NCBI GenBank assembly: GCA_964646765.1
Contig: CAZYIA010000003.1
Coordinates: forward strand, 66,815 to 130,814
Source: an uncultured Candidatus Saccharibacteria bacterium
Lineage (GTDB): Bacteria; Patescibacteriota; Minisyncoccia; Phycocordibacterales; UBA9973
DNA: 64,000 bases
Direction: 5' to 3'
Position numbers and translations under genes: made by a program. The notes beneath the pieces are model-generated. The model did not search any database, was not told where the DNA came from, and saw only the letters and a program-made list of their open reading frames with translations. This document shows positions 1,207 through 58,553 of the stretch, in pieces; the first letter of the stretch is position 1, and each line of letters opens with the position of its first letter.

Positions 1207-1290
1207 GCGCGGGTGGCGAAATTGGTAGACGCACTACCTTGAGGTGGTAGCGGCCGCAAGGCTGTGGAAGTTCAAATCTTCTCCCGCGCA
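1207..1290 (+). tRNA. tRNA-Leu (anticodon GAG), class II with long variable arm
   Basis: Cloverleaf folded by hand. Acceptor GCGCGGG/CCCGCGC, anticodon stem CTACC/GGTAG with loop TTGAGGT, a 15-nt variable arm, T-loop TTCAAAT, discriminator A. CCA is not encoded. Confidence 0.85.
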
Positions 1291-1299
1291 CATGATACA

Positions 1300-1326
1300 A
1301 AAAAGGCGACTGCTCGCCTTTTTTGT
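1300..1326 (+). terminator. Rho-independent terminator after tRNA-Leu
   Basis: GGCGAC-tgc-TCGCC hairpin followed by TTTTTTG. Confidence 0.7.
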
Positions 1327-1332
1327 TTACAT

Positions 1333-1560
1333 GGGCGAGGCGGAGTGATGTTTTGCGAGCACGCAAAACCACGAGCCGGGGTCGCGGAATTGTATGAGCG
1401 ACGGCGAATACAATATCCGTGACCACAAGTAAAAGACGAGCGAAGGCTCGTCTTTTACTATGCGCGGGAAGTGAGCAGCCTGCGTTGCTCACGTGGAGAT
1501 TTGAACGCCGGAGCGATATTCGGCTAGCAAGCCGAATCGCGAGGCGGTGCCCAGACAAAG
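1333..1560 (+). ncRNA. Unclassified structured RNA-like element, copy A of a tRNA-adjacent conserved element
   Basis: A core of about 75 nt (1333-1405) is roughly 80 % identical to 19328-19401. It contains stem GTTTTGCG-agcac-CGCAAAAC (1350-1369), whose two variant positions covary in copy B. Further perfect hairpins follow: GACGAGC-gaag-GCTCGTC, GTGAGCA...TGCTCAC and GCGATATTCGGC...GCCGAATCGC. 1461-1510 carries tRNA-Leu-derived fragments: TATGCGCGGG repeats the tRNA 5' end, and the minus strand reads like a tRNA-Leu T-loop plus 3' acceptor interrupted by a hairpin. There is no credible ORF; the 119-aa antisense track ORF is rejected. Confidence 0.4.
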
Positions 1561-1681
1561 GCGAGTGACGATGAGCCTTTAGTTGCGGGCAAATCTTCTT
1601 GTTATGCTTGTTAACTTGTAACCCAAGAAACTATTCCCAGTTTCTGGAGGTTTTTTAGTATACATACGATATACTTGTCTC

Positions 1682-4600
1682 ATGTTACCAATTGCGATTG
1701 CTCGATCATTCCGAGCCACAGTGTTTTCTCTGGTCGTACTTTTCTCATTAACGGCAGTACCGGTATTTGCCGCTCCTCCAACGTTGGCAAATTATACGTA
1801 CGCAACAACAGCAACAACAACGAGTGCGACAGCTGACTACACATTTACTTTTACAACAGCAACTGAGGTTACTAACGCTAGTGAAATGATTTTCAAAGGA
1901 GATTTTGGATCTTCGTTTGATCTCTCATCAAGTACAGCTGCTGTTACTGTTGGCGGCACTCCTATAACAGTTGGAGAATTTTGGAATGGAGGAGGAAGTG
2001 GCAATGTATATATTCGGTTAACTGATACAGTACCCGCAGGCTCAAACGTTGTAGTTACCATTTCAAATATTGTTAATCCAAGTTCAGCAGGGTACTACAC
2101 TATTGACTCGGTTGGGACAGGGGACAGTGGACGAAACACTATTGATGCTGTGCCGTATACAACAACATTTACTATTGGTGATCCTACGCCAATTTTTGAT
2201 GGTGGTGATGGATCTGATGGATCACCATTTTTAATCAGTACATGTTTACAACTACAAGGAATATCGCACGATCTTACTGCTACAGCTCACTATAAACTTA
2301 CGACCGATGTTGATTGTTCAGAAACATCGTCGTGGAATGGTGGTAAAGGATTTACACCACTTGGTGATGGAGGTCATCCATTCATGGGGACATTCTTGGG
2401 TAATGGTCACATAATTTCAAATCTCTATATTAATGATGCAGCTTCTGCGTATGCTGGTTTATTTGGTAATGCCTATGGTGGAGCTGTTATCCGAGGCGTT
2501 CAACTGAGTGGCGCCACCGTTATTGGTGGAACGAGCGTTGGTTCTCTTGTTGGGAGCATGGCTGGCGTTACATTTGAATATAACAGTGTAATAACTGCAA
2601 CGGTAACTGCTTCAAATGGCGCAGGATCCGCTGGAGGACTCATTGGGTATGCGGGAGAAGCGAACAATATTCATGATTCCTACTCACAAGACGCAACCAT
2701 AAACGGAGGCACAAGCGCCGGTGGTGTTATTGGTTGGCTTAATGATGGAGTATACAGTTTAGTTTCTAATCTTTATTTTGCTGGCACCAACCTTACTGCT
2801 GGTGACTTCGCCGGACCAATTGCAGGAAGTTCAAACAATACAGTTTCAAATTCGTTTTATGATCATGATCTATACGGAAGTGATAATGGGGTTGGAACAG
2901 CTAAGACAACCGGTGAGATGCAAACTGAATCAACATTCACTGATGCCACTTGGGATTTTGAAGATGTCTGGGTGCTTAATGTAGAAAGTTATCCAACACT
3001 GCGATGGACAGAGCCGGTAACAGCAACCTATGGTGGAGGCGATGGCTCGGAAGGTAGTCCGTTTCAGATAAGTTCGTGCGATCAGTTGCAGTACATGTCT
3101 CATGATCTTACCGCACATTATATTTTGACCGGAGATGTAGATTGTTCAGGAATTACCAACTTCAAGCCAGTTGGTACGATTGATACTCCGTTTACTGGTG
3201 GATTTGATGGAGATCATCACACTATTTCAAATCTCAATATTAACCGACCACTTCGTGACACGGGTGTTGGTTTGTTCGGCGCAATTCAAGGAGTTGCCAT
3301 CACAGATCTTGTTTTAAACACCAACATAAATATCTCAGGTCATGATTATGTAGGTTCTCTCGTTGGTAACGCTGTTAACAGTCAGATAACAAATGTGACT
3401 GCAACTGCAACAGTTAGTGGCCACGGACAAGTTGGTGGACTGATCGGAGCAATCAATGGTGGAACAAATGTTACGCATTCCTCAGTGCTAAATGGAACCA
3501 CCGTGAGTGGATCCTCAGCTGTTGGTGGTTTGATTGGGTTGGAAGCTTCATCAACATATGGAGTGTTTTATGTGACACAGTCATCCGCGGCAGCTACAAC
3601 CGTGAGCGGTGATAATGGAAACATTGGTGGCTTGATCGGGTATGTTTCAACTGGAGGTATTGCCGATTCATACTCTCAATCAAATATAAGTCTTGGAGGC
3701 ATTGCCGTTTCTCAGGTTGGTGGTCTTATCGGTGGTATGAGTCATGGCATGTTGCTTCGAACCTATGCAGCAGGAACTGTTTCGACAAATAGTACTAATG
3801 CCACTACCGCTGGCTTAGTTGGAGGAGCATTCTTTAGAGGATCAATTACCGACTCATTTAGTGCGGTCCATAACTCTGGTATTGGTGCAAGTTTCGTGTA
3901 TGGATTGTATGGATCATTTAGTCTGGATACTGGTGATGGCTTTGCACTTTCCAATAACTTTTATGACGGAAGTCAAAATGACAGCAACGCATGTTATGCA
4001 AGTGGTCCTGATAGTGAATTAAACTGTGTGCAAATCAATCCAATTGATCCCGCAACATATTGGAAGCAGGTAATTAACAGTCCAATTGCAGTGTGGGATA
4101 CCACTACTGTTTGGAATGTTGCTACCAGTGGTTCAAATTGGCCTGAACTTTATGCAGAAGGTGAGCACGCCCCAACAGTGTTTGCTGGAACAGGTACCAC
4201 AAACGATCCATATCAAATCGGTAGTTGTGGTCAGCTTCAGGCAATGAACGAACACCTCGACTCACACTTTATTCTTTTAAGTGATATTAATTGTTCTGAA
4301 ACTTCAGCTTGGAACAGCGGTCTTGGCTTTTCACCAGTAGGAGATCAGACGGATAGATTCCAGGGAGAACTCAACGGTGACGGTCATACTATTAGCGGTT
4401 TGACGATTAACCGTCCTGCTCAAGTTGATGTTGGTTTGTTTGGATATACAGATGGTGCGCTTATAAAAAATATATCTTTAACCACCGCAACAATTACTGG
4501 TCTTACGTATGTTGGAGCACTGGCAGGTTTTATCCGCGATACGACTCTCAATGATGTATCTATTAGTGCAACCGTGAGTGGTGAAAGTAATATAGGTGCG

Positions 4601-5914
4601 CTTGCCGGAATTATTACAGAATCAACAGTTGAAGACTCAAATTCGGAAGGAACTGTCACCAGTTCTGCTAGTCTTGCTGGTGGTTTTGCTGGGGAGACAG
4701 CTTGCGGATCAGAATTCTCACGTGATTTTTCTACAGCAACTGTGAGCGGCGAAACAGATATTGGTGGATTTACCGGATTTGATGGTTGTGAAGGACCTGG
4801 ATCAATATTTAATGAAGTGTATGCAACTGGTAGTGTGACTGGGACAAATAAAGGCATAGGAGGATTGATTGGTCATGCAGTTCAATCGACAGTTCAAAAT
4901 GCGTATGCGAGTGGTGATGTACACGGATCTGACTTAGTTGGTGGTCTTGTTGGAAACGGAATGGATGGTACCTATGCAAAAGTATATGCTCGAGGCCATG
5001 TAACCGGAACTACAGGAAATGTTGGTGGATTATTTGGTAAATTAGCTGGCCAAGAAATTACCATCTCTAATACCGATACTTTTTTTGACGCAACTATTAT
5101 GTCTAACGATCCTGGAACTTGGGGGACAGGGAAGACAACAGCGCAAATGAATTCTAATGGAACATTTATTACTGCTGGTTGGGATTTTGAAGAAGTGTGG
5201 GCTCGCCGTGATGTGCACAATGATGGCTACCCATACTTTAAGTGGCAGTTTGAAGAAACAGACACAACAGCCCCAGTTATCATTTTGACTTCACAACCTC
5301 CACGAAATACAACTACTTCAAATGTCATTTGGGCATTTCAAACAAATGAAGCTTGTGAGGTGATTGCCGAACCAATAGTTGCATCTCCAGCATATGAGGC
5401 TGAGCTTCTCTTTGAAGAAGTTCAGGTTGGTACTAATGTTCATGGAACACTACAACCAGTTCAAACAGGGGAAACATACACTATTACATTTAGTTGTCGC
5501 GATAACGCAGGTAATGTTTCAAATGAGCTCACCGTCGGACCATTTACTGTTGGGAATGGCTCAGGTCCTGTTCTTATCACCACTCCTATCCCAGGATATG
5601 GAGGAGTTCCGCCACTTAATTCTTCTACGGGCACTCCTGGATTAAATGGTGGAATCTCAAACACTGAAATTTTCACGCACGATCTCGGCTTTGGTATGAC
5701 TGATCCTGATGTGAAGCGTCTCCAAGAGTACCTTAACAGCCACAATGCTCAAATTGCTAAATCTGGTCCTGGATCTCCAGGAAAAGAAACTACCCGATTT
5801 GGTTCTCTCACGAGAAGCGCTCTTAAGAAATTTCAGAAAGCACACGGCATTACCCCAACAACTGGTTACTTTGGACCAAAGACCCGAAAGTGGGTGAATG
5901 AGCACTGGAATTAG
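1682..5914 (+). CDS. Giant secreted GLUG-repeat surface protein with C-terminal peptidoglycan-binding domain (1410 aa)
   Basis: N-terminal signal peptide (FSLVVLFSLTAVPVFAAPP). Three copies of a roughly 280-aa module (GDGSxGSPFxIxxCxQLQxxxHDLxxHYxLxxDxDCSxT...GHxISNLxIN) followed by arrays of GGLIG/GGLVG (GLUG) motifs. The C-terminal 60 aa form a PG_binding_1-like domain (LQEYLN...GPGSPGKETTRFGSLTRSALKKFQKAHGITPTTGYFGPKTR). Confidence 0.85.
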   Translation: MLPIAIARSFRATVFSLVVLFSLTAVPVFAAPPTLANYTYATTATTTSATADYTFTFTTATEVTNASEMIFKGDFGSSFDLSSSTAAVTVGGTPITVGEFWNGGGSGNVYIRLTDTVPAGSNVVVTISNIVNPSSAGYYTIDSVGTGDSGRNTIDAVPYTTTFTIGDPTPIFDGGDGSDGSPFLISTCLQLQGISHDLTATAHYKLTTDVDCSETSSWNGGKGFTPLGDGGHPFMGTFLGNGHIISNLYINDAASAYAGLFGNAYGGAVIRGVQLSGATVIGGTSVGSLVGSMAGVTFEYNSVITATVTASNGAGSAGGLIGYAGEANNIHDSYSQDATINGGTSAGGVIGWLNDGVYSLVSNLYFAGTNLTAGDFAGPIAGSSNNTVSNSFYDHDLYGSDNGVGTAKTTGEMQTESTFTDATWDFEDVWVLNVESYPTLRWTEPVTATYGGGDGSEGSPFQISSCDQLQYMSHDLTAHYILTGDVDCSGITNFKPVGTIDTPFTGGFDGDHHTISNLNINRPLRDTGVGLFGAIQGVAITDLVLNTNINISGHDYVGSLVGNAVNSQITNVTATATVSGHGQVGGLIGAINGGTNVTHSSVLNGTTVSGSSAVGGLIGLEASSTYGVFYVTQSSAAATTVSGDNGNIGGLIGYVSTGGIADSYSQSNISLGGIAVSQVGGLIGGMSHGMLLRTYAAGTVSTNSTNATTAGLVGGAFFRGSITDSFSAVHNSGIGASFVYGLYGSFSLDTGDGFALSNNFYDGSQNDSNACYASGPDSELNCVQINPIDPATYWKQVINSPIAVWDTTTVWNVATSGSNWPELYAEGEHAPTVFAGTGTTNDPYQIGSCGQLQAMNEHLDSHFILLSDINCSETSAWNSGLGFSPVGDQTDRFQGELNGDGHTISGLTINRPAQVDVGLFGYTDGALIKNISLTTATITGLTYVGALAGFIRDTTLNDVSISATVSGESNIGALAGIITESTVEDSNSEGTVTSSASLAGGFAGETACGSEFSRDFSTATVSGETDIGGFTGFDGCEGPGSIFNEVYATGSVTGTNKGIGGLIGHAVQSTVQNAYASGDVHGSDLVGGLVGNGMDGTYAKVYARGHVTGTTGNVGGLFGKLAGQEITISNTDTFFDATIMSNDPGTWGTGKTTAQMNSNGTFITAGWDFEEVWARRDVHNDGYPYFKWQFEETDTTAPVIILTSQPPRNTTTSNVIWAFQTNEACEVIAEPIVASPAYEAELLFEEVQVGTNVHGTLQPVQTGETYTITFSCRDNAGNVSNELTVGPFTVGNGSGPVLITTPIPGYGGVPPLNSSTGTPGLNGGISNTEIFTHDLGFGMTDPDVKRLQEYLNSHNAQIAKSGPGSPGKETTRFGSLTRSALKKFQKAHGITPTTGYFGPKTRKWVNEHWN
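5693..5905 (+). repeat. Shared C-terminal PG-binding cassette, nucleotide-level repeat (partner at 11861-12075; diverged copy at about 9430-9640)
   Basis: 5693-5737 and 11861-11905 match at 41 of 44 nt (GGyATGACTGAyCCTGATGTGAAGCGTCTCCAAGAGTAyCTTAA). Similarity continues through GGATCTCCAGGA...TTTGGACCAAAGAC, about 80 % identity over roughly 200 nt. Confidence 0.7.
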
Positions 5915-5945
5915 GTCTCAGTACTACAAATTTATCCACACATAT

Positions 5946-5978
5946 AGTAAAGGGAGCCAAGTCTTGGCTCCCTTTACT
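5946..5978 (+). terminator. Perfect 16-bp inverted repeat between surface-protein genes 1 and 2
   Basis: AGTAAAGGGAGCCAAG-tc-TTGGCTCCCTTTACT. There is no T tract, so it could be a terminator, an attenuator or an RNA processing/protein-binding site. Confidence 0.5.
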
Positions 5979-5993
5979 ATATACTTAGAGCAT

Positions 5994-8900
5994 ATGTTTA
6001 TATCACGACGTCTTTTTTCAGTCGTTTTCTTTGCGATTGCTATTGTACTAGTATCGGGAGTTTCATTTCCAACCATCGTTCATGCCGCGGCAACCGATGT
6101 TACTTCGTGTGCAGATTTTGAAAATATCAATAACAGTCTTGATGGTGATTATGTTCTAACCACTAACATTGATTGTACCGACGAAGGTAACGCGATCATG
6201 GTAGGCACTGACGGTAGTCCGTTCACTGGTACATTTGATGGCCAAGGTCATAAAATTACCGTAAACATTAATGTTACAGGTAGTGATTATGTCGGTCTCT
6301 TCCGAGCAATTTCAGATCCGGGTACTCGTGTAGAAAATTTGTGGGTTTCTGGCACAATCGCCGTTACCAACCAACATGGTACTGGTGCGGTAGTTGGAGA
6401 AACAAAAAGTAACTCCACTGTTTCAGAAGTAGTTAGCGATGCAACCATTACTTCTAATTATTACAACGTCGGTGGTCTCATTGGCGAAATGACCGGAAAT
6501 TCTCTTCTGGCTGATTCCTACTTCGTTGGTTCAGTCACGGCAAACATTAATATTGGGGGACTGGTTGGTTCGGCGGCAAATGCAGAAATTACTACTTCAT
6601 ATGCTGCGGGAGAAATTCACACAGACTATTTTCATAATTGGGCTGGTGGGTTAGTGGGTCATACATTCAACAGTGCTGTCTATATTATTTACTCTTTCAA
6701 CGCGAGCTCGATGGACACCAACGGCGGCGGTTTGATCGGTTATAGAGATGATACGCTCAGCGTCAGTGATAGTTACTACGATGCCACTATTTCTGGAGCC
6801 ACTGCCTGCGATCATGAAGACGTCGGTGGATCACTCACAGGTTGTACGGCTATTGTTGGTAATTCAGGTTATTTTAAAGATGACGTAACAAGCACCGCAC
6901 CATTTGCAGGCGGTACTTGGAATTTCACCGACACATGGGAGATTGCTACCAATGACTACCCACGACTCAAAGTGTTTGAAGCACTTTACCCAGTTCCGAC
7001 ATACGCAGGCGGAGTTGGCACACCAGAAAATCCATATCAAATCACTACTTGTGCGGGTATTGAAGATATCGACAACCATCTTTCAGCCTCATATGTGCTT
7101 AACAGTGATATCGATTGTACTTCAGCGCAAAATGACATTATTGTCCGAGGCCAATTCTCCGGAACGTTCAATGGTAATGGTCACACCATCACACTTTATA
7201 TAGACACGACAGATGACGGCATCGGTTTGTTTGAAATACTCTACGGTGCACACGTCAAAAATCTGCATCTTAGTGGTCAAATCATGGGAGGTGGTCTTGA
7301 AGGCGCGCTCGCTGGTACAGCAGATAATGGAACAATCATCCAATATGTAGGCAGTGATGTAAGCGTGTCTACACATACTGGTTCAAACCTGACTGGCGGC
7401 CTTGTTGGATTGCTGACACAGCACTCGTTAATTTCAAATTCGTTTAGCACTGGAGAAATTACAGCAGATGGATACGCAACCGGCGGTTTAGTAGGTTCAC
7501 TCTTTTATAGCGGAAGTATTGATCGTTCGTATGCTTCAGGCGCGGTTCATGGCGGGACAGATACAGGTGGCCTCGTTGGTAAGGGTGATACGCAGGCAGG
7601 ATCAATCACTCAAAGTTTCCAAGCCGGCCATGTGGACGGCGGACCGAATACTGGAAGTATTATTGGAGAAAGAGCGGCAGCAACATTGGCTGATGATTAC
7701 TTTGACGCAGACATAAATGGTCTCGGTGCTGTTTGTGCTGGAGATGCAAGTAACGCATGTACTTTTGTGAATGGCGAGGGAAGTAATCCGAATTATTTCA
7801 TTAACAATAGTGAGAATCCTCCGTTTCCTGAATGGGACTTCAATAACGTATGGATAACCAGCACAGGGAAGCTGCCATATTTGCGGACACCAGTTACCGC
7901 TTCGATGGCATACTATCCGCTCGATGATATCAGCGGTTCGTTTACTCAAACTACTCCAGATCTTACAGGGTTTCGTGATGCAACACTGCACGGTGCTACA
8001 CTCCCATCTCGTGTTACGGGCAACTTCCAGCATGCCCTGTCGTTTAACGGATCAAACTATGCAAGTACCTCACTTCCATTTTCTCAAAGCGGCACAATAT
8101 CGCTCTGGGCATACCCAACGACAACAGGTGCTGGCATAAGTCCTGCAGGTTGGAAGCTCACAGGTCCAGGTAATGGTTATGTGCTTTTGGATGAAGGCGA
8201 TGGAAGTCATTGGCGCGCAAATTTTCAGCCGGATATTGATGGTGCGAGTGGAGTAGTAGTAGAAGATTTAAGTTCAATTGCTACCAATCAATGGAACCAT
8301 TTAGTGATGACGTGGTCATATAATTCAATTGCAAATGAGACCACAGTTCATTTGTACGTAAACGGAGTTGATAAAGGCTCAGAGATTTGGGCTGGCACAC
8401 CAGGTGCTAATGGCCTCGGCGGATTCAATATCGGAAAGTCAGGAGATTCTAATGGCGATTACTTCACTGGTAAAATTGATGAAGTCCGCGTATACGATTA
8501 TGCCCTCGGCGCCGGAGAGGTTGCGGATCTCGCCGGTCTCGCTGTTGATCATGTGAGCGGCGTGCCAACCGTCACTGCTACAAGTCCGGAAGACGGCGCA
8601 ACTGGAGTACAAACTAATCATGAAATGAGCGGCACGATTACTTTCTCGGAGGCGATGAATCCGAACCTAAGCGAACTTTCATTTGCTCCATGTGCTTCTA
8701 CATGTCCAACCGCGGTTCTTGGTTGGGACAATGGTGATACCGTACTTGGGTTCTTGATTAATGATCCAAATCCACTCGCCCCAAATACTGAGTATACCGT
8801 TATTGTACGTGGCCAAAGTGTTGAAGGCGTATTAATGGCTTCACCATATTCGTTCTCATTTACTACTGAAGATACAGTTACGGAAACTCCAATCATGGAA

Positions 8901-9665
8901 ATTACCGCTCCACAGTCAGGTAGTTCTTATAAAACCAATGAAACGATGCATTTTAATTTCACACTTCCAGAGTTAATGTCTGCCGATACTTTGTCTATCA
9001 CATTTACGCGAACTGACACAGATGCCTCCGATATTGTTCTCAATATGAAGGATGCAAATGCAGAACAAGAAAATATCTTTGATTTACCTCTCAATAATCT
9101 AGCTGGTGCAGAAGAAGTAGTACTTGCTCACGTGATGCAGGATACGGTAAACAATATTCCTGCTGGAACCTATACCATTACGCTTTCGTACCAAGATGCT
9201 GCAGGAAATCCTGCTGCTACGGCTTCAATTTCAAATATTGTTATTGCTGAACCGACAGTCACTTCGCACAACGTTACTCTTATTCCTTCAGGCCCTGGTA
9301 GTATTGGACACTTTGTTTCATCTTCAGGTACGAACGCATCCGACTGCCAACCAGGATTTCTTGTTTCGCCAAATACGGGGCAATCCTGTATCCAGGAGCA
9401 ACAGCCCACAGCTATCTTCCTCAAGGACCTCAAAAAGGGAATGGTTGATCCCGACGTCTCTAAACTTCAACACTACCTTGATCTCGCTGGTTTCCCAGTA
9501 GCACTTACTGGCCCAGGCTCGCTTAACCATGAAACTACGACTTTTGGGTCAAAAACAGTGATAGCTTTAAAGAAATTTCAGAAAGCTCATGGTATTCCAG
9601 CAACTGGTTTCTTTGGACCAAAAACGAGAGCCTATGTTAATGCTCATCTCGATATACTCAAATAA
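5994..9665 (+). CDS. Giant secreted GLUG-repeat protein with LamG (concanavalin-like) lectin domain and C-terminal peptidoglycan-binding domain
   Basis: ATG at 5994 gives a signal peptide (MFISRRLFSVVFFAIAIVLVSGVSFPTIVHAAA), whereas the track start at 5898 overlaps gene 1. GLUG motifs are present (VGGLIGEMTG, IGGLVGSAAN, TGGLVGKGD). A Laminin_G_3-like block spans LHGATLPS...GTISLWAYP...NQWNHLVMTW...LYVNGV...GKIDEVRVYDYAL. The C-terminus is PG_binding_1-like (DVSKLQHYLD...FQKAHGIPATGFFGPKTRAYV). Confidence 0.85.
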   Translation: MFISRRLFSVVFFAIAIVLVSGVSFPTIVHAAATDVTSCADFENINNSLDGDYVLTTNIDCTDEGNAIMVGTDGSPFTGTFDGQGHKITVNINVTGSDYVGLFRAISDPGTRVENLWVSGTIAVTNQHGTGAVVGETKSNSTVSEVVSDATITSNYYNVGGLIGEMTGNSLLADSYFVGSVTANINIGGLVGSAANAEITTSYAAGEIHTDYFHNWAGGLVGHTFNSAVYIIYSFNASSMDTNGGGLIGYRDDTLSVSDSYYDATISGATACDHEDVGGSLTGCTAIVGNSGYFKDDVTSTAPFAGGTWNFTDTWEIATNDYPRLKVFEALYPVPTYAGGVGTPENPYQITTCAGIEDIDNHLSASYVLNSDIDCTSAQNDIIVRGQFSGTFNGNGHTITLYIDTTDDGIGLFEILYGAHVKNLHLSGQIMGGGLEGALAGTADNGTIIQYVGSDVSVSTHTGSNLTGGLVGLLTQHSLISNSFSTGEITADGYATGGLVGSLFYSGSIDRSYASGAVHGGTDTGGLVGKGDTQAGSITQSFQAGHVDGGPNTGSIIGERAAATLADDYFDADINGLGAVCAGDASNACTFVNGEGSNPNYFINNSENPPFPEWDFNNVWITSTGKLPYLRTPVTASMAYYPLDDISGSFTQTTPDLTGFRDATLHGATLPSRVTGNFQHALSFNGSNYASTSLPFSQSGTISLWAYPTTTGAGISPAGWKLTGPGNGYVLLDEGDGSHWRANFQPDIDGASGVVVEDLSSIATNQWNHLVMTWSYNSIANETTVHLYVNGVDKGSEIWAGTPGANGLGGFNIGKSGDSNGDYFTGKIDEVRVYDYALGAGEVADLAGLAVDHVSGVPTVTATSPEDGATGVQTNHEMSGTITFSEAMNPNLSELSFAPCASTCPTAVLGWDNGDTVLGFLINDPNPLAPNTEYTVIVRGQSVEGVLMASPYSFSFTTEDTVTETPIMEITAPQSGSSYKTNETMHFNFTLPELMSADTLSITFTRTDTDASDIVLNMKDANAEQENIFDLPLNNLAGAEEVVLAHVMQDTVNNIPAGTYTITLSYQDAAGNPAATASISNIVIAEPTVTSHNVTLIPSGPGSIGHFVSSSGTNASDCQPGFLVSPNTGQSCIQEQQPTAIFLKDLKKGMVDPDVSKLQHYLDLAGFPVALTGPGSLNHETTTFGSKTVIALKKFQKAHGIPATGFFGPKTRAYVNAHLDILK

Positions 9666-9681
9666 ATAATAGAACTTTACT

Positions 9682-9718
9682 AAAAAAAACCAGAACAAAT
9701 CCTCGTTCTGGTTTTTTT
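9682..9718 (+). terminator. Rho-independent terminator after surface-protein gene 2
   Basis: A8-CCAGAAC-aaatcctc-GTTCTGG-T7. Confidence 0.8.
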
Positions 9719-9784
9719 AGTTTTACTAACCGTTACCTGAAACCGTGATATACTTCAAATACTAGTAATAACGTTTTTTTGCAT

Positions 9785-12082
9785 ATGGTAAAGAAAATCC
9801 TGTTTCCGGTCGCTTTTATTTTTCTTAGTTTTGCTGTAGCTGGTGGCCTGTCGGCTAAAGTTGCTTTTGCTGCACCACAGTGTCATGCCATTGCTACGGG
9901 TAATTGGAGCGACCCTGCCATCTGGAGCAACTGTCATGGTGTTGGTGGTCTTCCAGACGCAACCGATATTGTAAGTATTTCTACTGATTCAATAGTTACT
10001 GTTGACGTCTCTAATGCTGTAGCCCGATCATTATATGTTTATGATTCTGTAAATGCTTCACGTGGCTATACGTTTACCCCCTCAGGAGTTCTTACGGTTA
10101 CCGATTACGCTACCCTTTCTGGATCAAGTGGTTCAGGGTCACAATTCATAAACGTTGGCGACGGTACTCTTATTCTCGGGGGAAATCTTCGTATAGATGG
10201 AGGGATTCTTGGTACAGCAACCGTAACTGTTAACAATGGCACTCTTACTGTTGGAGGAAGTATTCTGATGTCAGGTGGCCTAAATGCAAGTCTAGTTTCA
10301 ACTGGAACGAGTACTATCAATGTTGGAGGAGACTTAACCAATGGAGTGTTAACAACCTCAGGAACTGGAACGATAAATTTTAATGGAACTGGGGCCCAGG
10401 AGGTTTCTCCATATGCTACTTTTAATAACGTTATCATCTCGAATACTGGTGGTACTGTAACCATTGATTCAGGAGCCACTGTTATTGGCGGGGACTTATC
10501 TGTTACCTCTGGAGATCTTTATCTTGATGGTGGAACACTTGATGTTTTAGGAGATACCACAATTTCGAGTGGTGCTACATGGAGTGAAGGACCAGGTATG
10601 GCGGTTACTTTTGCTGGGAATCTCGAAAATGAAGGAACGTTTACTGCTGATACTGGTAACCATACGTTTACTGGGACTGGTAAAACAATTAGTGGAGGAA
10701 GTGGAATAGATATTCCTAATTTAGTTATTAGTGGAACTATTACTAACCACAATACTCATGCCCTCACAGCATCTTCCAGCCTATCAGGCGCCGGCACCCT
10801 CACTAATGCTAGTAGTGCAATCTTAGAAATTGGTGGAGATCTTACTATTACTACACTTGTTGCCTCTATTCCTGGTAACTTTGTGAAATACACTAAAGCG
10901 GGTGATCAAACAATTCGGGCGATCGAGTACAGCCTCCTTGCGGTGAAAAATGGGGGAGTGAAAACTATTCCTTCTGGTATTACTGTTGATTTTGCTCTAG
11001 TTATCAATGTGGGAAATGTCGTTGATTTGACGGGAACAACAACCACTCAGGTTCTGTATATGAATAATGCTAGCCAAGATGTTGGCTCTTGGGGTGCGAC
11101 TGGATCAGGGGCTGCAAATATTAACGACACCTTCTTTTCTGGAACCGGAACGGTTAATGTCACTGGTCTGACGGCAACCATTACTATCGACAGTATTTCA
11201 AATGATACCGGCGTTTCTTCGTCTGATTTTATTACCAAAACTGCAGGACAAACAGTGAATGTAACGATGAGTTTCCCCTATATTTCTGGAGAAACAGTTG
11301 AAGGTTCTGTTGATGGAGGAGCAACCTATACTAATATCAGCAGCATGGCTTCTGGAACGTCGGTTGTTTGGACTGGAGTGACATTGGCTAGTGGAACAAA
11401 CACGCTGAAAGTACGAGTTACACTTGCTCCTTCAGATATTTCTGGAACACAGGTTTATACACTTGATACTGATGCTCCAGGAACTATCGCAGCGACACCG
11501 AGCGCTGGGACATTTTCGTCATCTCAGAGCGTAACGCTCAGTTCCTCAGGAGCTACGACTGTGTACTATACGACTGATGGCACTTCTCCTTCGTGCTCAT
11601 CAGGTACACTATACTCTGGGCCGATCACTGTTTCTTCATCCGAAACTATAAACGCGATTGCTTGTGATGATGCTGGTAATGAAACGACTGGATCGTTTAC
11701 CTATACGATACACACTGGTGGGGGATCAGTATTTCTTATTCCTACTTTGCCAGTCATATCAGCTAACCTTTTAGGAAATTTGACTCAGCCACAAACCACT
11801 ACAGGTAGAGCAGGTGAACAGAATACTTCAAAAGAGTTATTCCCAAAGAATTTGTATAAAGGCATGACTGACCCTGATGTGAAGCGTCTCCAAGAGTATC
11901 TTAATGGCACATCATTTATGGTTGCGAAAACCGGCCCAGGATCTCCAGGACATGAAACTTCTCGCTTTGGTCCTGCTACGGCAAAGGCGTTAATGCTCTT
12001 CCAAAAGAGTATCGGTATTACACCGGCAACTGGTGGTTTTGGACCAAAGACGAGAGCGTACGTAAACACACATTCTCACTAA
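9785..12082 (+). CDS. Secreted beta-helix-repeat surface protein with chitobiase/hexosaminidase C-terminal-like domain and C-terminal peptidoglycan-binding domain
   Basis: Signal peptide (MVKKILFPVAFIFLSFAVAGGLSAKVAFAAP). Gly/Thr-rich parallel beta-helix-like repeats. TVYYTTDGTSPSCSSGTLYSGPITVSSSETINAIACDDAGNETTGSF resembles the CHB_HEX_C_1 fold. The C-terminus is PG_binding_1-like (DVKRLQEYLN...FQKSIGITPATGGFGPKTRAYV). Confidence 0.8.
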   Translation: MVKKILFPVAFIFLSFAVAGGLSAKVAFAAPQCHAIATGNWSDPAIWSNCHGVGGLPDATDIVSISTDSIVTVDVSNAVARSLYVYDSVNASRGYTFTPSGVLTVTDYATLSGSSGSGSQFINVGDGTLILGGNLRIDGGILGTATVTVNNGTLTVGGSILMSGGLNASLVSTGTSTINVGGDLTNGVLTTSGTGTINFNGTGAQEVSPYATFNNVIISNTGGTVTIDSGATVIGGDLSVTSGDLYLDGGTLDVLGDTTISSGATWSEGPGMAVTFAGNLENEGTFTADTGNHTFTGTGKTISGGSGIDIPNLVISGTITNHNTHALTASSSLSGAGTLTNASSAILEIGGDLTITTLVASIPGNFVKYTKAGDQTIRAIEYSLLAVKNGGVKTIPSGITVDFALVINVGNVVDLTGTTTTQVLYMNNASQDVGSWGATGSGAANINDTFFSGTGTVNVTGLTATITIDSISNDTGVSSSDFITKTAGQTVNVTMSFPYISGETVEGSVDGGATYTNISSMASGTSVVWTGVTLASGTNTLKVRVTLAPSDISGTQVYTLDTDAPGTIAATPSAGTFSSSQSVTLSSSGATTVYYTTDGTSPSCSSGTLYSGPITVSSSETINAIACDDAGNETTGSFTYTIHTGGGSVFLIPTLPVISANLLGNLTQPQTTTGRAGEQNTSKELFPKNLYKGMTDPDVKRLQEYLNGTSFMVAKTGPGSPGHETSRFGPATAKALMLFQKSIGITPATGGFGPKTRAYVNTHSH

Positions 12083-12089
12083 ATGAAAA

Positions 12090-12122
12090 TAAAAAAACTG
12101 GAGCCAAGGCTCCAGTTTTTTT
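12090..12122. terminator. Bidirectional rho-independent terminator between convergent genes
   Basis: A7-CTGGAGCC-aa-GGCTCCAG-T7. Confidence 0.8.
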
Positions 12123-12123
12123 A

Positions 12124-12531
12124 TTAGTCTTTCTTTTTAAGAATTTCAAGAATCTTATCTAGTTTTTCAACTTCAATACTATTTAACCGAACCTGAAGCG
12201 CCTCGATTTCCTTCTTTGCTTCAAGGTTTGTTTGAAAATCTTCAAGTGCCTGAGCCCGGTCACGCTCATTCTGGCGGTTCTGCGCCATCATAATAATTGG
12301 CGCCGCGTAGGCAGCTTGTGTTGAAAAGAGAAGGTTGAGAAGAATAAATGGATACGGGTCCCAGTGGTGGGTATAGCCATAGAGGTTGAGCCCCATCCAG
12401 AGTATGACAAAAAGGGTTTGGCTGATAATGAAACCCCACGATCCCATACCGTTAGCAACAGCATCGGCAATTTTTTGGCCGATGGTGAGCGTTTCTCGAT
12501 GCTTCTCGTGCCATGTTTTTTCTCTTTTCAT
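12124..12531 (-). CDS. DUF1003-family membrane protein
   Basis: GSWxFIIxQTxxxxxWMxLN...LLNLxxSxQAAYAAPIIMMAQNRQxxRD followed by a coiled-coil tail. Start taken at the internal Met (MKREKTW) to avoid overlap with the divergent ABC gene. Confidence 0.7.
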   Translation of the reverse strand: MKREKTWHEKHRETLTIGQKIADAVANGMGSWGFIISQTLFVILWMGLNLYGYTHHWDPYPFILLNLLFSTQAAYAAPIIMMAQNRQNERDRAQALEDFQTNLEAKKEIEALQVRLNSIEVEKLDKILEILKKKD

Positions 12532-20248: not shown

Positions 20249-20905
20249 ATGAAAAAAATTCTAACATTTATGGTTGGCGCTGCATTTATTATTGCTGCTG
20301 TTGTTCTCTCAGGAGCACAGGCAAAGGCGCAGACTTTTCCGTCTGGTTGTTCTTCGTCTAGCGGTTATAGTACGACAACAGGTGTAGCATGTAATGGCAC
20401 AACAAGTTATCCAGCAGGATGTATCTCTTCATCTGGATATAGTTCGATAAGTGGTGTTCCATGTAACGGAATGGCGCTTGGTGCAAATGGCGGCTCACCA
20501 ACAATATATGGTTGTTCAGCTGGATACACGTATAGTGTCTATACCGGTGCACCATGTAATGGAGCAACTGGGCCAAACGTTGGTTCCCCTGGTGTTACCT
20601 ACTATGTCGCTGGTTGTACTTCTGCAACAGGCTATAGTTCAGTCTCAGGACTTTCCTGTGGCACCGTAGCAAGCTCTCCTGGATCGGTTAATGGTTACGC
20701 CATTCTTCCAGGTTGTGCTAATGCAGCGAGTGGATACAGTGTTGTAACAGGCCAATCATGTTATATTGCCGCGGCGAATATTAATACAGGTACGGTACCG
20801 GGAGTCCCAAATACTGATGGTGACCCAATTCGTCTTGTAGCACTTATTCTCGCAGGACTTTCTCTCTTCGGTATTGCGTATAGTATGAAACGTGTACTTG
20901 CGTAG
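20249..20905 (+). CDS. Secreted cysteine-rich repeat protein with C-terminal hydrophobic anchor / candidate sorting signal
   Basis: Signal peptide, then five tandem copies of GC-x(3-5)-GYS-x(3)-G-x(2)-C-NG (for example GCSSSSGYSTTTGVACNG, GCISSSGYSSISGVPCNG). The C-terminus is VPNTDGD-PIRLVALILAGLSLFGIAYS-MKRVLA: an LPxTG-like pentapeptide (VPNTD), a hydrophobic span and a basic tail. Confidence 0.7.
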   Translation: MKKILTFMVGAAFIIAAVVLSGAQAKAQTFPSGCSSSSGYSTTTGVACNGTTSYPAGCISSSGYSSISGVPCNGMALGANGGSPTIYGCSAGYTYSVYTGAPCNGATGPNVGSPGVTYYVAGCTSATGYSSVSGLSCGTVASSPGSVNGYAILPGCANAASGYSVVTGQSCYIAAANINTGTVPGVPNTDGDPIRLVALILAGLSLFGIAYSMKRVLA

Positions 20906-20957: not shown

Positions 20958-21593
20958 ATGAAAAAAAATTTTCTCATTTTTATATGTTTCCTGCTCATTA
21001 TCTTTATTGGAAGTGTGTGGTACATTCGCACTTCATCAGACCAGGAAGAAGCTATCCAGGCACCACTTATGGTGGTTTCTAGTCCTAGTGATGTGACCCA
21101 GCCACTCCCACAAAATACTTCGGTACTTCCGCAAGATACAACTGATACGACACTTCCCACACAGCTATCTATTCCTACTATTGGCGTAGAAACTTCTATA
21201 CAACAAGTTGGAGTAACCACGAGCGGCAATATGGCTACGCCGACAAATTATACGGATGTTGGTTGGTATAAGTATGGACCGCGGCCTGGTGAAATGGGAA
21301 GCGCCGTTATTGCTGGTCACCGTCGAAATGCAGCTTTTCTCCCTGCAGTTTTTTATCACATTAAAGATCTTGCGATAGGTGACGAAATTTTTATAACACG
21401 AAAGGATGGTACAAAACTCCGATTTAAAGTTATTCGGAGTGAGTTTTATAACTATGAAGATGTGCCAACACGACAATTATTTTTGGAAACTGGTGCCGCG
21501 TATCTAAAATTGGTTACCTGCGAAGGTGAGTGGCGAGAAGTTGATCGGACTGCTCGTGAGCGCCGAATTATAACCGCGATTCTAGAATCCTAG
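20958..21593 (+). CDS. Class F-like sortase (transpeptidase)
   Basis: N-terminal TM anchor and Pro/Thr-rich linker. Sortase core LSIPTIGVETSIQQVG...GSAVIAGHR (catalytic His) ... LVTCEG (TLxTC-type Cys) ... R (catalytic Arg). Confidence 0.8.
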   Translation: MKKNFLIFICFLLIIFIGSVWYIRTSSDQEEAIQAPLMVVSSPSDVTQPLPQNTSVLPQDTTDTTLPTQLSIPTIGVETSIQQVGVTTSGNMATPTNYTDVGWYKYGPRPGEMGSAVIAGHRRNAAFLPAVFYHIKDLAIGDEIFITRKDGTKLRFKVIRSEFYNYEDVPTRQLFLETGAAYLKLVTCEGEWREVDRTARERRIITAILES

Positions 21594-56807: not shown

Positions 56808-57506
56808 ATGTCGGCTACGAAGAAAAAAGGAAAATTAATTGTTATTGATGGAACTGACGGCTCGGGTAAAGCAACTCAAGCTGCGCTTTTGGCTGCGCAT
56901 TTAAAGAAAGCAGGCTATAAAGTAGCAACCATTGATTTTCCGCAATATGGCGATAATTTTTTTGGTGAATTTCTTGGACGTTGTCTGTCGCGTCAGTACT
57001 ATAACTTCGTGAAGGTCCACCCTAAAATTGCTTCAGTTTTGTATGCAGCAGACCGTTGGGAGTCAAAAGAAAAAATTGAAGGTTGGCTTAACAAAGGTTA
57101 CATCGTGATTGCTGATCGCTATGTGTCAGCAAACCAAATTCACCAAGGTGGAAAAATAACGAGCACTAAGAAGCGCCGAGACTTTTTGAAGTGGCTCGAT
57201 GAGATGGAATACAACGTATTTAAAATTCCACGACCAAACCTGGTACTATACTTGTCACTACCACTTACTACCATGCGCTCTCTGATTAAAGAGCGCAATA
57301 AAAAAGAAGTCCGTGCCTATCTTGGCAAGGGGAAGGACGTACACGAAAAAGACATGGCGCACTTAGCGAATGCTCGCGAGAGTGCACTCAAGTTAGTGAA
57401 AGAGCTCAACAATTTCAAAAAAATTGACTGTGCTCCTGAAGGTAACCTTTTACCACCACCAGTTATTCACGAAAAAGTTTTTGAAGAAGTCTCAAAAATT
57501 ATATGA
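56808..57506 (+). CDS. tmk: Thymidylate kinase (dTMP kinase)
   Basis: P-loop IVIDGTDGSGKATQ, DRY-like ADRYVSANQIHQGG, and a lid region. Confidence 0.85.
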   Translation: MSATKKKGKLIVIDGTDGSGKATQAALLAAHLKKAGYKVATIDFPQYGDNFFGEFLGRCLSRQYYNFVKVHPKIASVLYAADRWESKEKIEGWLNKGYIVIADRYVSANQIHQGGKITSTKKRRDFLKWLDEMEYNVFKIPRPNLVLYLSLPLTTMRSLIKERNKKEVRAYLGKGKDVHEKDMAHLANARESALKLVKELNNFKKIDCAPEGNLLPPPVIHEKVFEEVSKII

Positions 57507-58018
57507 ACGCACGCATTCCAGTCGTTAATGAACAAGATGAAGTAATTGGCTACCGTATTCGCCGAGAATTGCAACCTGGCGATATTTTTCGAGTCACTGG
57601 TCTTTGGATTTATGATACCGAAGGTACTATTTTACTAGCTCGTCGAGCGGAAACTAAAGCGCTCCATCCAGGTTTATGGGCCCTTGGCGTTGCCGGGACT
57701 GTTGAAGAAGGGGAAACATATGACAGTAATATCGTGAAAGAAATGGGAGAAGAAATTGGCCTTACAGGTTACACCCCAACGTTCTTAAATAAAGAATTAC
57801 GCGACACTCCAGTGAAGGGGCTTCGTCGGTTTGCTTCGCACTACGCGGTGACTATCCCGCACGATTACCCATTTAAATTAAAGGAAGATGAAGTGGCAGA
57901 AGTTAAATGGTTCACCCCATCTGAAATTGACCAAGCAGTAACCGAGCATCCTGAATTATTTGTGCCAACATTTGTTTTGTACTATAAAGATTTTCTCTAT
58001 GCGGATTCCCATCGTTAA
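57503..58018 (+). CDS. NUDIX-family hydrolase (paralog 1)
   Basis: IPVVNEQDEVIGY...LLARRAETKALHPGLWALGVAGTVEEGETYDSNIVKEMGEEIGL (Nudix box). Confidence 0.7.
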   Translation: MNARIPVVNEQDEVIGYRIRRELQPGDIFRVTGLWIYDTEGTILLARRAETKALHPGLWALGVAGTVEEGETYDSNIVKEMGEEIGLTGYTPTFLNKELRDTPVKGLRRFASHYAVTIPHDYPFKLKEDEVAEVKWFTPSEIDQAVTEHPELFVPTFVLYYKDFLYADSHR

Positions 58019-58553
58019 TGAACAAGATGAAATAATTGGAGAGGAGGAGCGCGCAGTCATTCACCGTGATGGTTTACGACATCGGGAGATTCACGTATGG
58101 CTCGTTACTCCTCAAAAAGAATTTATCTTCCAAAAACGAGGTCCTCATCAAGATACCTGGCCCGGATATTTAGACGTTACCGTTGGGGGACATGTTGATA
58201 CTAAAACTGAATCATACGAAGAGTGTGCGAAACGAGAACTGTATGAGGAGACAGGGACGAAACTACCGATTACTCTTATCATAAAGCGTTATTCAGAAAG
58301 TTATGATCCAAATACTCAAACCAAGAACCACGCTTTTCGTGCCGTATTCGGGGCGATTTATACGGGAGCATTACATGATTTAAAAGTTGAAGAGGGTAAT
58401 GGTCAAGGTTTTATAAAATATTCCCTCGAAGAATTGAAATCTCTATCAGAAGAAGATAGAAAGAAATTTATTCCGCGATATTTTACCGAAGCTTATTTTG
58501 ATTTATTTCAGAAAATTATAACTACTCTTTTTAGTCATGAATCTCAAAATTAA
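57999..58553 (+). CDS. NUDIX-family hydrolase (paralog 2, tandem duplicate)
   Basis: IPIVNEQDEIIGE...FQKRGPHQDTWPGYLDVTVGGHVDTKTESYEECAKRELYEETG (canonical Nudix box). Confidence 0.7.
   Translation: MRIPIVNEQDEIIGEEERAVIHRDGLRHREIHVWLVTPQKEFIFQKRGPHQDTWPGYLDVTVGGHVDTKTESYEECAKRELYEETGTKLPITLIIKRYSESYDPNTQTKNHAFRAVFGAIYTGALHDLKVEEGNGQGFIKYSLEELKSLSEEDRKKFIPRYFTEAYFDLFQKIITTLFSHESQN

Follow-up and report, generated by a model that had tools for sequence, protein, structure and literature searches.

Three tandem genes for putative wall-anchored modular surface proteins with a common PG_binding_1 tail in a Paceibacteria-type bacterium

Three consecutive genes, here called g1, g2 and g3, encode large proteins that differ along most of their length and end in the same type of module, which raises the question of what these proteins do at the cell surface and whether their common end is an anchor or a piece of DNA through which the genes recombine. 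The genes lie on the plus strand of the window, i.e. the whole 64-kb stretch of DNA that was analysed, and according to its list of open reading frames they encode proteins of 1410, 1223 and 765 aa, covering the span of about 10.4 kb given by the first-pass annotation. The end reported there (12122) includes the terminator hairpin 3' of g3. Two independent assemblies of the locus were found to be identical. The arginyl-tRNA synthetase (ArgRS) of the organism shares about 62% identity with proteins named Nomurabacteria, Pacebacteria and Patescibacteria, and the organism is on this basis probably a Paceibacteria-type Patescibacteria (CPR) bacterium; the earlier assignment to the CPR agrees with this and with the relatives of the common module, which occur overwhelmingly in CPR-labelled metagenome-assembled genomes (MAGs). 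The search for relatives yielded no close strain or species, the best relative of g1 being 41% identical. Each gene has a -10-like box upstream and a hairpin downstream, and the one that separates g1 from g2 extends into the -10-like TATACT of g2; from these signals g1, g2 and g3 are predicted to be three separate transcription units. The coordinates of all features are collected in Table 1.

Table 1. Features of the g1-g3 locus (positions in the 64-kb window; AF2, predicted structure model)
Feature	Position	Strand	Basis or remark
g1	1682..5914	+	ORF; protein identical (P0001) in NCBI and Logan; Pfam
g1 DUF2808-like domain (aa 29-141)	1766..2104	+	Pfam PF10989, 1.3e-7, above cut-off
g1 GLUG module 1 (aa 172-445)	2195..3016	+	start/end motifs; five-module alignment
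g1 GLUG module 2 (aa 450-832)	3029..4177	+	motifs, alignment; holds best Peptidase_M26_N/Glug stretch
g1 GLUG module 3 (aa 833-1190)	4178..5251	+	AF2 model a right-handed beta-helix, pLDDT 95.2
g1 Ig-like domain and linker (tail block)	5276..5665	+	travels with cassette
g1 PG_binding_1 cassette (82 aa)	5666..5911	+	Pfam 1.4e-11
g1-g3 patch	g1 5693..5736 vs g3 11861-11904	+	41/44 identical; 26-nt exact run from 5705
g1/g2 intergenic hairpin, 18-bp stem	5943..5981	+	-30 kcal/mol, z -7.8
g2	5994..9665	+	start as called on identical Logan contig; Pfam
g2 GLUG modules 1 and 2	6087..6989 and 7002..7913	+	module alignment
g2 Laminin_G_3 (concanavalin A-like lectin/glucanase fold)	8064..8525	+	Pfam 6.2e-23
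g2 Big_5 and DUF4625-like Ig domain	8565..9224	+	Pfam Big_5 5.8e-12; DUF4625 4e-3, below cut-off
g2 PG_binding_1 cassette	9411..9653	+	Pfam 1.9e-10
Intrinsic-terminator-like hairpin 3' of g2	9683..9718	+	z -6.2
g3	9785..12082	+	start as called on identical Logan contig; Pfam
g3 N-terminal beta-solenoid	9857..11194	+	no Pfam family; AF2 all-beta, pLDDT 90.2
g3 CHB_HEX_C_1 / Fn3_assoc domain	11498..11686	+	Pfam 3.5e-18
g3 PG_binding_1 cassette	11834..12079	+	Pfam 5.6e-8
Bidirectional terminator hairpin, common to g3 and convergent DUF1003 gene	12088..12125	.	z -7.9

The architecture of the three proteins was established with Pfam matches counted only above the gathering cut-offs, and the four families named at first, GLUG, Laminin_G_3, CHB_HEX_C_1 and PG_binding_1, were all recovered. 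The g1 protein matched DUF2808, Peptidase_M26_N, Glug and PG_binding_1, and consists of a signal peptide, a DUF2808-like N-domain, three GLUG beta-helix modules, an Ig-like domain, a linker and the PG_binding_1 cassette. The DUF2808-like domain, which is also kept in the proteins P0002 and P0012, would be the distal tip of g1 once the signal peptide is cleaved. In g2, where GLUG repeats and a LamG lectin domain had been proposed, Glug and Laminin_G_3 (6e-23) both matched together with Big_5 and PG_binding_1, in the order signal peptide, two GLUG modules, LamG, Big_5, DUF4625-like Ig domain, Cys-loop motif and cassette. In g3 a signal peptide is followed by a beta-solenoid of about 450 aa, an Ig-like domain, CHB_HEX_C_1 and the cassette, with Pfam matches to CHB_HEX_C_1, Fn3_assoc and PG_binding_1; the chitobiase-C-like domain annotated previously was recovered, and the beta-helix repeats correspond to the solenoid, which however shows no relationship to the GLUG module (0.1% probability in hhalign). 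The solenoid had no significant PDB neighbour, the best, non-significant ones being Ag43 and pertactin-type passengers.

All three N-termini were judged by inspection to be signal-peptide-like with an AXA-type site, as had been noted, and the ectodomains are long, acidic and rich in Gly, Ser and Thr. The C-termini of g1-g3 lack an LPXTG-type signal, in agreement with the earlier statement that no sortase motif is present, although a sortase gene lies within the window. These data support the reading of g1-g3 as modular secreted proteins that end in one common type of module, a genuine PG_binding_1 domain.

The profile of the cassette matched the peptidoglycan-binding domains of PDB entries 5nm7, 7rum, 4lpq, 6tci, 1lbu and 3bkh, and its solved relatives belong to endolysins, SleB, an L,D-transpeptidase and a DD-carboxypeptidase. 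Like the PF01471 wall-binding domains of AP3 (5nm7), phiKZ gp144 (3bkh), SleB (6tci/4fet) and the Streptomyces albus DD-carboxypeptidase (1lbu), the three tails, all above the Pfam cut-off, retain the paired F/x-G-x-x-T ... F-Q ... G-x-x-G-P-K-T pattern; in contrast to them, they carry a conserved 9-residue insertion (G-x-G-S-x-G-x-E-T) before the first FG..T motif. Relatives of the cassette, 205 as database matches and 199 as genome loci, come mostly from CPR-labelled MAGs; they form the C-terminus of proteins between 150 and 2900 aa long, frequently in tandem genes. In the enzymes the domain accompanies wall hydrolases, whereas here and in 75 other Patescibacteria proteins it is fused to non-enzymatic surface modules: 63 Pfam families are represented in these 75 proteins, fn3, Ig, InlB repeats, LamG and GDSL lipase being examples, and the top 25 include no peptidoglycan hydrolase. 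Because so many different families occur with the tail, it would act as a generic anchor, and its distribution marks it as a PG_binding_1 subfamily that appears typical of Patescibacteria and a common surface-protein anchor in the group.

We consider it probable that g1-g3 are separately transcribed, Sec-exported and non-covalently wall-anchored modular surface proteins for binding or adhesion, whose tails are old paralogues. In cultured Paceibacteria, extracellular proteins bearing peptidoglycan-binding domains (PGBD) rank with the most strongly expressed genes of unknown function, and it has been proposed that they take part in host attachment (PMC10936435). Compared by description, the proteins of Ca. 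Yanofskyibacterium, Microsyncoccus and Minisyncoccus belong to the same class-level group and combine a PGBD with Ig-like or other binding folds, but GLUG, LamG and solenoid architectures or a tandem trio like that of g1-g3 are not described in that work.

It could be asked whether the tail is itself the attachment device, gripping the peptidoglycan of a bacterial host like an endolysin wall-binding domain, with the protein secreted or otherwise held. The nearest solved relatives are indeed endolysin domains (5nm7, 7rum and 3bkh), participation in host attachment is what the above proposal for PGBD proteins implies, and the insertion could change the ligand specificity. Methanogenic archaeal hosts have no murein. 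It is such archaea that the cultured Paceibacteria parasitise (PMC10936435), and the signal peptides of g1-g3 look cleavable, leaving no second anchor in these proteins; moreover, 63 unrelated families including lipases are a better fit to a generic retention signal, and viral contigs hold next to no members of the subfamily. This explanation is unlikely.

Less likely again is a structural, S-layer-like coat tethered to the wall, with envelope architecture rather than specific adhesion as the main role. The large size of these secreted proteins, their acidic, Gly/Ser/Thr-rich composition and the wall-binding module at one terminus do recall S-layer proteins anchored by SLH or CWB2, and very high expression of the related Paceibacteria proteins (PMC10936435) would suit a coat. 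Three different architectures side by side and the poor conservation even in relatives (the best g1 homologue cited above) do not; relatives of the flank gene (identity <=68%) lack the locus beside it, and mosaics of beta-helix, LamG and Ig domains are typical of adhesins.

The modules of g1 and g2 bear on a possible enzymatic function. A five-module alignment identified paralogous GLUG modules, three in g1, of 274, 383 and 358 aa and only 32-39% identical to each other, and two in g2, 29-37% identical to one another and to those of g1. The first-pass annotation had listed a triplicated 280-aa module beside GLUG arrays; the three modules were found, but the uniform size was not, and the GLUG repeats are rungs inside the modules rather than separate elements. 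Structure prediction and Foldseek comparison, as suggested at that stage, gave a beta-helix for g1 module 3, and both profile and structure searches placed it closest to IgA1-protease beta-helix domains (3n6z, 6xjb and 7uvk). These domains, from Streptococcus pneumoniae ZmpA (6xja/6xjb), G. haemolysans (7uvk) and B. ovatus (3n6z), match at profile E 3e-29 to 4e-20, and the beta-helix of IgA1 protease has been described as its NTD (PMC7695701). Unlike the Gram-positive IgA1 metalloproteases, g1 and g2 repeat the module and lack the M26 catalytic domain, HExxH, G5 domains and LPXTG, the anchor being PG_binding_1; neither an HExxH motif nor an M26 catalytic-domain match was found in g3 either. 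That the beta-helices are polysaccharide lyases, hydrolases or epimerases attacking polymers of a host or of the environment, assisted by LamG and CHB_HEX_C as carbohydrate-binding accessories, is improbable, a little more so than a coat: the next Foldseek matches are a pectate lyase, the AlgE4 epimerase and PL6 alginate lyases, and LamG and CHB_HEX_C are frequent companions of glycoside hydrolases, but those matches are weak (TM 0.27-0.35, 8-12% identity, E >1e-3) and reflect the generic fold only, no catalytic family was found in g1-g3 by Pfam or NCBIfam, and the beta-helix of IgA1 protease, to which they are homologous, serves as a gating domain and is not catalytic (PMC7695701).

The tails had been described as near-identical modules of about 60 aa. 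A PG_binding_1 domain does end each protein, but in pairwise comparison the tails are only 62-69% identical as protein (63-69% by tblastn, 62-63% when 82 profile columns are compared) and 59-64% as DNA, over a length of 246 nt. Between g1 and g3, blastn aligned 193 nt at 73% DNA identity and the entire 246-nt cassette is 63.8% identical, where roughly 80% over some 200 bp had first been reported; identity to the best foreign cassette is 62.4%. Divergence among the three tails equals their divergence from tails of other Patescibacteria orders, synonymous sites of the tails are saturated, and no within-genome homogenisation of the tails was detected. At identical residues the same codon is used at the level given by codon usage for g1-g2 and g2-g3 (P 0.16 and 0.30) and marginally above expectation for g1-g3 (P 0.018). 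The longest exact matches are 26 nt (g1-g3), 17 nt and 11 nt. The stretch of 41 in 44 nt between g1 and g3 was confirmed; in 99 other cassettes it is matched at most at 33/45, and the simulated P for the 26-nt run is 0.003. This patch alone (41/44-45 nt, P about 0.003-0.01) is more alike than chance at the codon level would give, and these approximately 45 nt may be the relic of an old gene micro-conversion.

On a longer time scale the tails have moved. The g1 protein aligns with its orthologue L001B over residues 5-1198 only; L001B ends in a tail of another type, and it is its neighbour, L001A, that bears the g1-type tail. The tail block of g1 is homologous to the tail of L001A and to the end of g2 and is missing from L001B, which places the evolutionary breakpoint 5' of the cassette, where GLUG module 3 ends. 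This comparison supports shuffling of modules or tails over evolutionary time, in which whole tail blocks have been exchanged between paralogues.

That the cassette is a working recombination substrate today, as first proposed, which would drive ectodomain swapping, deletion of g2, or phase or antigenic variation, is very improbable, the least probable of the explanations considered: the cassettes all point the same way as direct repeats, the g1-g3 run exceeds chance and tails were exchanged in evolution, but the tails are no closer than foreign ones, in two of the three pairs identical codons are no commoner than expected, the exact runs of 17 and 11 nt fall far short of the minimum reported for RecA-dependent exchange in E. 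coli and that of 26 nt only just reaches it, the breakpoint does not coincide with the cassette, the two assemblies do not differ, and neither a recombinase or reverse transcriptase nor any silent cassette or near-identical repeat is present in the 64-kb window. The relatives available for comparison are all distant, and some recent recombination in the population may have gone unseen.

Wall-anchored binding or adhesion proteins of the kind we favour have counterparts elsewhere. Monoderm adhesins and S-layer proteins anchored by SLH, CWB2, LysM, GW or choline-binding modules show the same plan of signal peptide, variable ectodomain and conserved terminal wall-binding module, with several clustered paralogues having a common anchor, but the anchor of g1-g3 is of a different fold family. 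GLUG homologues of other phyla bear SLH, Por_Secre_tail, two-partner-secretion (TPS) or LPXTG signals instead of the PG_binding_1 tail (those of Firmicutes use SLH, PF00395). By their description, the Giant1-5 proteins of Apilactobacillus kunkeei (PMC12863079) are likewise very large surface proteins encoded by consecutive genes in a small genome, but g1-g3 are far smaller (0.8-1.4 against 3-8 kaa), with other domains and from another phylum.

In the proposed mechanism the signal peptide of each protein would be cleaved after Sec export, and the 82-aa tail would most likely grip the cell's own peptidoglycan non-covalently, so that the variable ectodomain projects outward; the tail would then do for these proteins what SLH, LPXTG, T9SS or two-partner-secretion signals do for GLUG proteins of other phyla. 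The three tails would be old paralogues held alike by selection at the protein level, without ongoing recombination. The projecting ectodomains, built of putatively non-catalytic binding or spacer modules (GLUG beta-helices, the LamG lectin fold, Ig-like domains, CHB_HEX_C and an unclassified beta-solenoid), could bind polymers of partner cells or of the environment, and a role of g1-g3 in adhesion or host contact may be envisaged.

The three consecutive surface-protein genes g1, g2 and g3 described in the first-pass annotation lie on the plus strand, their open reading frames spanning 1682-12082. That account of their anatomy is essentially right, but the near-identical recombining cassette that it placed at their C-termini did not withstand analysis. 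The trio is a typical example of a widespread design of the Patescibacteria (CPR), in which secreted modular binding proteins are probably retained by a lineage-specific PG_binding_1 tail. The genes were called on a Logan contig, an independent assembly which is base-identical to that of the window at this locus.

Positions of the features discussed, in the window unless another locus is named
Feature	Position	Strand	Remark
tRNA-Leu(GAG) gene	1207-1291		390 bp upstream of g1
Spacer	1292-1681		non-coding, several hairpins
g1	1682-5914	+	1410 aa; gene call on Logan contig
g2	5994-9665	+	1223 aa; gene call on Logan contig
g3	9785-12082	+	765 aa; gene call on Logan contig
Copies of ATATACTT	1669-1676, 5979-5986, 9748-9755	+	before g1, g2 and g3
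g1 stretch matching g3	5693-5736		41 of 44 nt
Cassettes of g1, g2, g3	5666-5911, 9411-9653, 11834-12079		C-terminal
g3 N-terminal region	9857-11194		about 450 aa
Cys-loop motif of g2	9345-9389		CQPGFLVSPNTGQSC
218-aa secreted protein gene	20249-20905		adjoins sortase gene
Sortase gene	20958-21593		
Direct repeat	57512-57549, 58002-58039		38 nt
Small ORFs linked by the repeat	57503-58018, 57960-58553		
Peptidase_S74 protein gene	58981-62100		1039 aa
P0002, g1 orthologue	L001 5018-9256		
YadA_head + Peptidase_S74 protein gene	L001 10449-12764		
Three tandem cassette genes	L041 8467-14177		another Patescibacteria genome

Signal peptides had been proposed for all three products, and fitting N-termini are seen by eye at the called starts, where a basic n-region and a hydrophobic core are followed by an AXA-type site (VFA/AP, VHA/AA and AFA/AP in g1, g2 and g3, respectively). 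The products are acidic and rich in Gly, Ser and Thr. It was confirmed that their C-termini carry no sortase signal of the LPXTG type, that is, no LPXTG-like motif with a hydrophobic stretch and a basic tail behind it, and all end in PG_binding_1; the sole LPXTG-like match, IPATG in g2, falls within the cassette. Downstream of each gene stands a strong hairpin (z -6 to -8), and upstream of it the 8-mer ATATACTT, which includes the -10-like TATACT and has only three plus-strand copies in the 64 kb, each 6-30 nt 5' of the start codon of one of the three genes. On account of these flanking elements each gene appears to form a monocistronic unit of its own. Many other genes of the window likewise have a -10-like hexamer 8-15 nt 5' of the ATG and lack a Shine-Dalgarno sequence, so that leaderless mRNAs, or mRNAs with a very short leader, seem to be common in the source genome.

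The domain assignments stood up to the Pfam search. The matches were DUF2808, Peptidase_M26_N, Glug and PG_binding_1 in g1; Glug, Laminin_G_3, Big_5, PG_binding_1 and, weakly, DUF4625 in g2; and CHB_HEX_C_1, Fn3_assoc and PG_binding_1 in g3. The Laminin_G_3 (concanavalin A-like lectin/glucanase) match of g2 (82.1 bits, 6.2e-23) and the CHB_HEX_C_1 (PF13290) match of g3 (65.7 bits, 3.5e-18) are both above the gathering score. What had been listed as separate features, a triplicated module and GLUG arrays, are both present but are two names for one thing, a beta-helix unit found three times in g1 (aa 172-445, 450-832 and 833-1190) and twice in g2. The modules start with P-[FY]-x-I-x-x-C, close with W-D-F-x-x-V-W...Y-P and share 29-39% pairwise identity. 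Their scores are 30.3 bits (g1) and 36 bits (g2) against Glug (PF07581), and 46.1 bits (g1) and a below-cut-off 17.3 bits (g2) against Peptidase_M26_N (PF05342).

A profile of 30 GLUG modules matched solved IgA1-protease structures (3n6z, 3e-29; 6xja/6xjb/7jgj, 3e-23; also 7uvk/7uvl). The AlphaFold (AF2) model of the third g1 module is a right-handed beta-helix (pLDDT 95.2), for which the best Foldseek matches were the IgA1-protease domains 3n6z, 6xjb and 7uvk (probability 1.00), followed by weaker matches to generic pectate-lyase-like helices and an SRRP adhesin. Identification of any of the three products as an M26 IgA1-specific metalloprotease (ZmpA/B/C) was rejected, as they have neither a Peptidase_M26_C match nor an HExxH motif; the NCBIfam ZmpA/B/C scores reach only 18-34 bits against a cut-off of 3000 bits, and these far-sub-threshold matches are explained by the beta-helix in common. 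An enzymatic role of the beta-helix ectodomains is a less probable rival to the binding role preferred here; the beta-helix of the S. pneumoniae IgA1 protease is a non-catalytic gating domain (PMC7695701).

The N-terminal region of g3 matched no Pfam family. Its model, built on an alignment of 14 homologues, is an all-beta solenoid (pLDDT 90.2) that opens with a C-x4-T-G-N-W-S-x4-W cap. Foldseek found no significant neighbour of it in the PDB, the best, non-significant matches being passengers of the Ag43 and pertactin type, and a profile comparison showed no relationship to the GLUG module. An exhaustive search gave 13,527 proteins with g3 modules in common, and PG_binding_1 also forms the C-terminus of several relatives that were tested. 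The solenoid looks like an unannotated, widespread family of surface proteins.

All three tails exceed the gathering score of PG_binding_1 (PF01471; 23 bits), with 44.8, 41.2 and 33.3 bits for g1, g2 and g3, and the window holds only these three copies, of 82 aa each. The cassette profile matched solved peptidoglycan-binding domains (5nm7, 5e-7; 7rum, 4lpq, 6tci, 1lbu and 3bkh), and the cassettes resemble those of endolysins (5nm7, 7rum, 3bkh), SleB (6tci), an L,D-transpeptidase (4lpq) and a DD-carboxypeptidase (1lbu). A conserved stretch of 9 residues, G-x-G-S-x-G-x-E-T, is inserted ahead of the first F-G-x-x-T and sets the cassettes apart from these domains. A profile search returned 205 cassette proteins, the named ones being 'peptidoglycan-binding' proteins of Patescibacteria/Pacebacteria. 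The GTDB representative genomes, which do not include the source genome, yielded 199 cassette loci (best cassette match 68%), of which 79 distinct ones were kept. These are mostly from CPR-labelled MAGs, including Kaiser-, Nomura-, Taylor-, Buchanan- and Magasanikbacteria, Paceibacterota and Saccharibacteria. The cassette there is usually C-terminal, on proteins of 150-2900 aa, and sometimes follows the signal peptide instead; about 15 of the GTDB loci have cassette genes in tandem. At locus L041 three tandem genes carry the same cassette N-terminally, directly after the signal peptide.

Every one of 75 related cassette proteins passed PG_binding_1, and 63 other Pfam families occur among them, including fn3, Ig-like domains, InlB repeats, GDSL lipases, LamG, CHB_HEX_C and propellers; the 25 commonest of these families include no wall hydrolase. 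In other phyla the GLUG homologues carry SLH, Por_Secre_tail, two-partner-secretion or LPXTG signals instead of the cassette. Therefore the cassette appears to serve the Patescibacteria as their own form of a generic module for surface retention. In viral contigs, where it was sought as part of CPR-phage endolysins, only 6 weak matches (34-46% identity) were obtained. It is tempting to speculate, although we consider it somewhat improbable, that the insertion-bearing tail is a Patescibacteria-wide sorting/retention signal defining a wall-attached 'surfaceome', its conserved loop recognising a CPR-specific feature of the wall or, more radically, the wall of the host cell. If this were true, the tail would do for these bacteria what LPXTG or SLH does elsewhere, and the host-interaction proteins could be listed for any CPR genome by a scan for the tail module alone.

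The tails had been called near-identical; their protein identity is 63-69% by tblastn and 62-63% over profile columns. For g1 and g3 about 80% nucleotide identity over roughly 200 bp had been given, and blastn found 73% over 193 nt; it aligned g1 with g2 at 83% over 65 nt and g2 with g3 at 79% over 53 nt. Over the 246 nt of the cassette the DNA identity is 59-64%, and the longest exact runs between pairs are 26, 17 and 11 nt. The same codon is used at identical residues 23 times in g1-g2 (19.3 expected from codon usage, P 0.16), 22 times in g2-g3 (19.7 expected, P 0.30) and, slightly above expectation, 28 times in g1-g3 (20.5 expected, P 0.018). Concerted evolution was rejected, since for each window cassette there are equally or more similar ones in unrelated genomes (e.g. 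67.5% at locus L003) and the g1 cassette DNA is 63.8% identical to that of g3 vs 62.4% to the best foreign one, so that the paralogues are no closer than homologues elsewhere. These identities, together with the two identical assemblies of the locus, speak against a recombining cassette.

The reported 41/44-nt match between g1 and g3 was confirmed. At this patch 99 other cassettes reach at most 33/45, and back-translation simulations put an exact run of 26 nt at P = 0.003 and the overall identity at P = 0.013. An old and short conversion tract would account for the patch, as would a somewhat more recent common origin for the tails of g1 and g3; active exchange would not. Repeats within the 64 kb are at best 44 nt long at 93% identity, or 51 nt at 73-78%, and near-identical (>90%) repeats of at least 50 nt are lacking there. 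Since such repeats are missing, and neither a reverse transcriptase nor a recombinase occurs among about 33 window proteins scanned, including all those adjoining the locus, a DGR or silent-cassette model was discarded. The trio shows no unusual genetic mechanism.

Over evolutionary time the tails have been shuffled. The closest relative of g1 among 5.8 billion clustered proteins, P0002, is just 41% identical and adjoins another GLUG protein gene on L001, a related contig. The alignment is collinear over residues 5-1198, i.e. to the end of module 3, and the g1-type tail (Ig-like domain plus cassette) is carried on L001 by the neighbour gene; tail blocks have therefore undergone exchange or replacement between paralogues, with the junction upstream of the cassette. 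P0002 itself ends in two different tandem Cys-flanked modules of about 75 aa each, with a faint PG_binding_1 match; they occupy the position that the insertion-bearing cassette has in g1, so that one kind of anchor seems to have given way to another.

With its genes for ArgRS, SHMT, ThyA, class I RNR, DHODH and transporters, the window is ordinary chromosomal sequence, of even GC content. Its attribution to CPR holds, because the named relatives of its ArgRS (about 62% identity) are Patescibacteria, Nomurabacteria and Pacebacteria; others reach 80-82%. The episymbiotic lifestyle is presumed from membership of this group, not from the window sequence. When metagenomes were scanned with the ABC-transporter gene downstream of the trio, 80 loci were obtained (45-78% identity; at most 68% over the full length), in none of which GLUG or cassette genes lie upstream of the orthologue, so the trio locus is lineage-specific. 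Neither an integrase nor a composition shift was seen at the locus, and there is thus no evidence that it is an island.

The 218-aa secreted protein encoded next to the sortase gene contains five C-x2-G-Y-x2-S-x2-T-G-x2-C repeats and ends in VPNTDG, a hydrophobic stretch and KR, which makes it a likely substrate of a sortase, by way of a non-canonical motif. Its Cys-loop motif stands once directly before the g2 cassette, and the motif also occurs in gene A of L001 and in L033; found in 3 of 85 cassette cases examined, it does not regularly accompany the cassette. A large protein of the window has a Peptidase_S74 intramolecular-chaperone domain (phage tail-spike/endosialidase type), and a YadA_head + Peptidase_S74 protein is encoded close to the GLUG genes of L001. 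The starts of two adjacent small ORFs are linked by a direct repeat (89% identity), which suggests a local tandem duplication.

To our knowledge, host attachment and exploitation by the ultra-small Patescibacteria are largely unknown beyond type IV pili. In the literature searched no paper linked GLUG or PG_binding_1 by name with CPR; a host-attachment role has been proposed by Kuroda et al. (PMC10936435) for extracellular proteins with a peptidoglycan-binding domain, whose genes rank among the most strongly expressed ones of unknown function in cultured Paceibacteria. Wall anchoring and adhesion by the three products are well-motivated inferences. As rivals, the tail could bind the wall of the host cell rather than that of its producer, or the products could have an S-layer-like role. 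Under the preferred reading of anchored adhesins, the trio is a clear case of a recurring design, diverse binding ectodomains on one conserved peptidoglycan-binding tail, and its products are reasonable candidates for cell-cell contact factors. Its practical value lies mainly in the general pattern, as the tail subfamily could serve for an inventory of surface proteins in CPR genomes.
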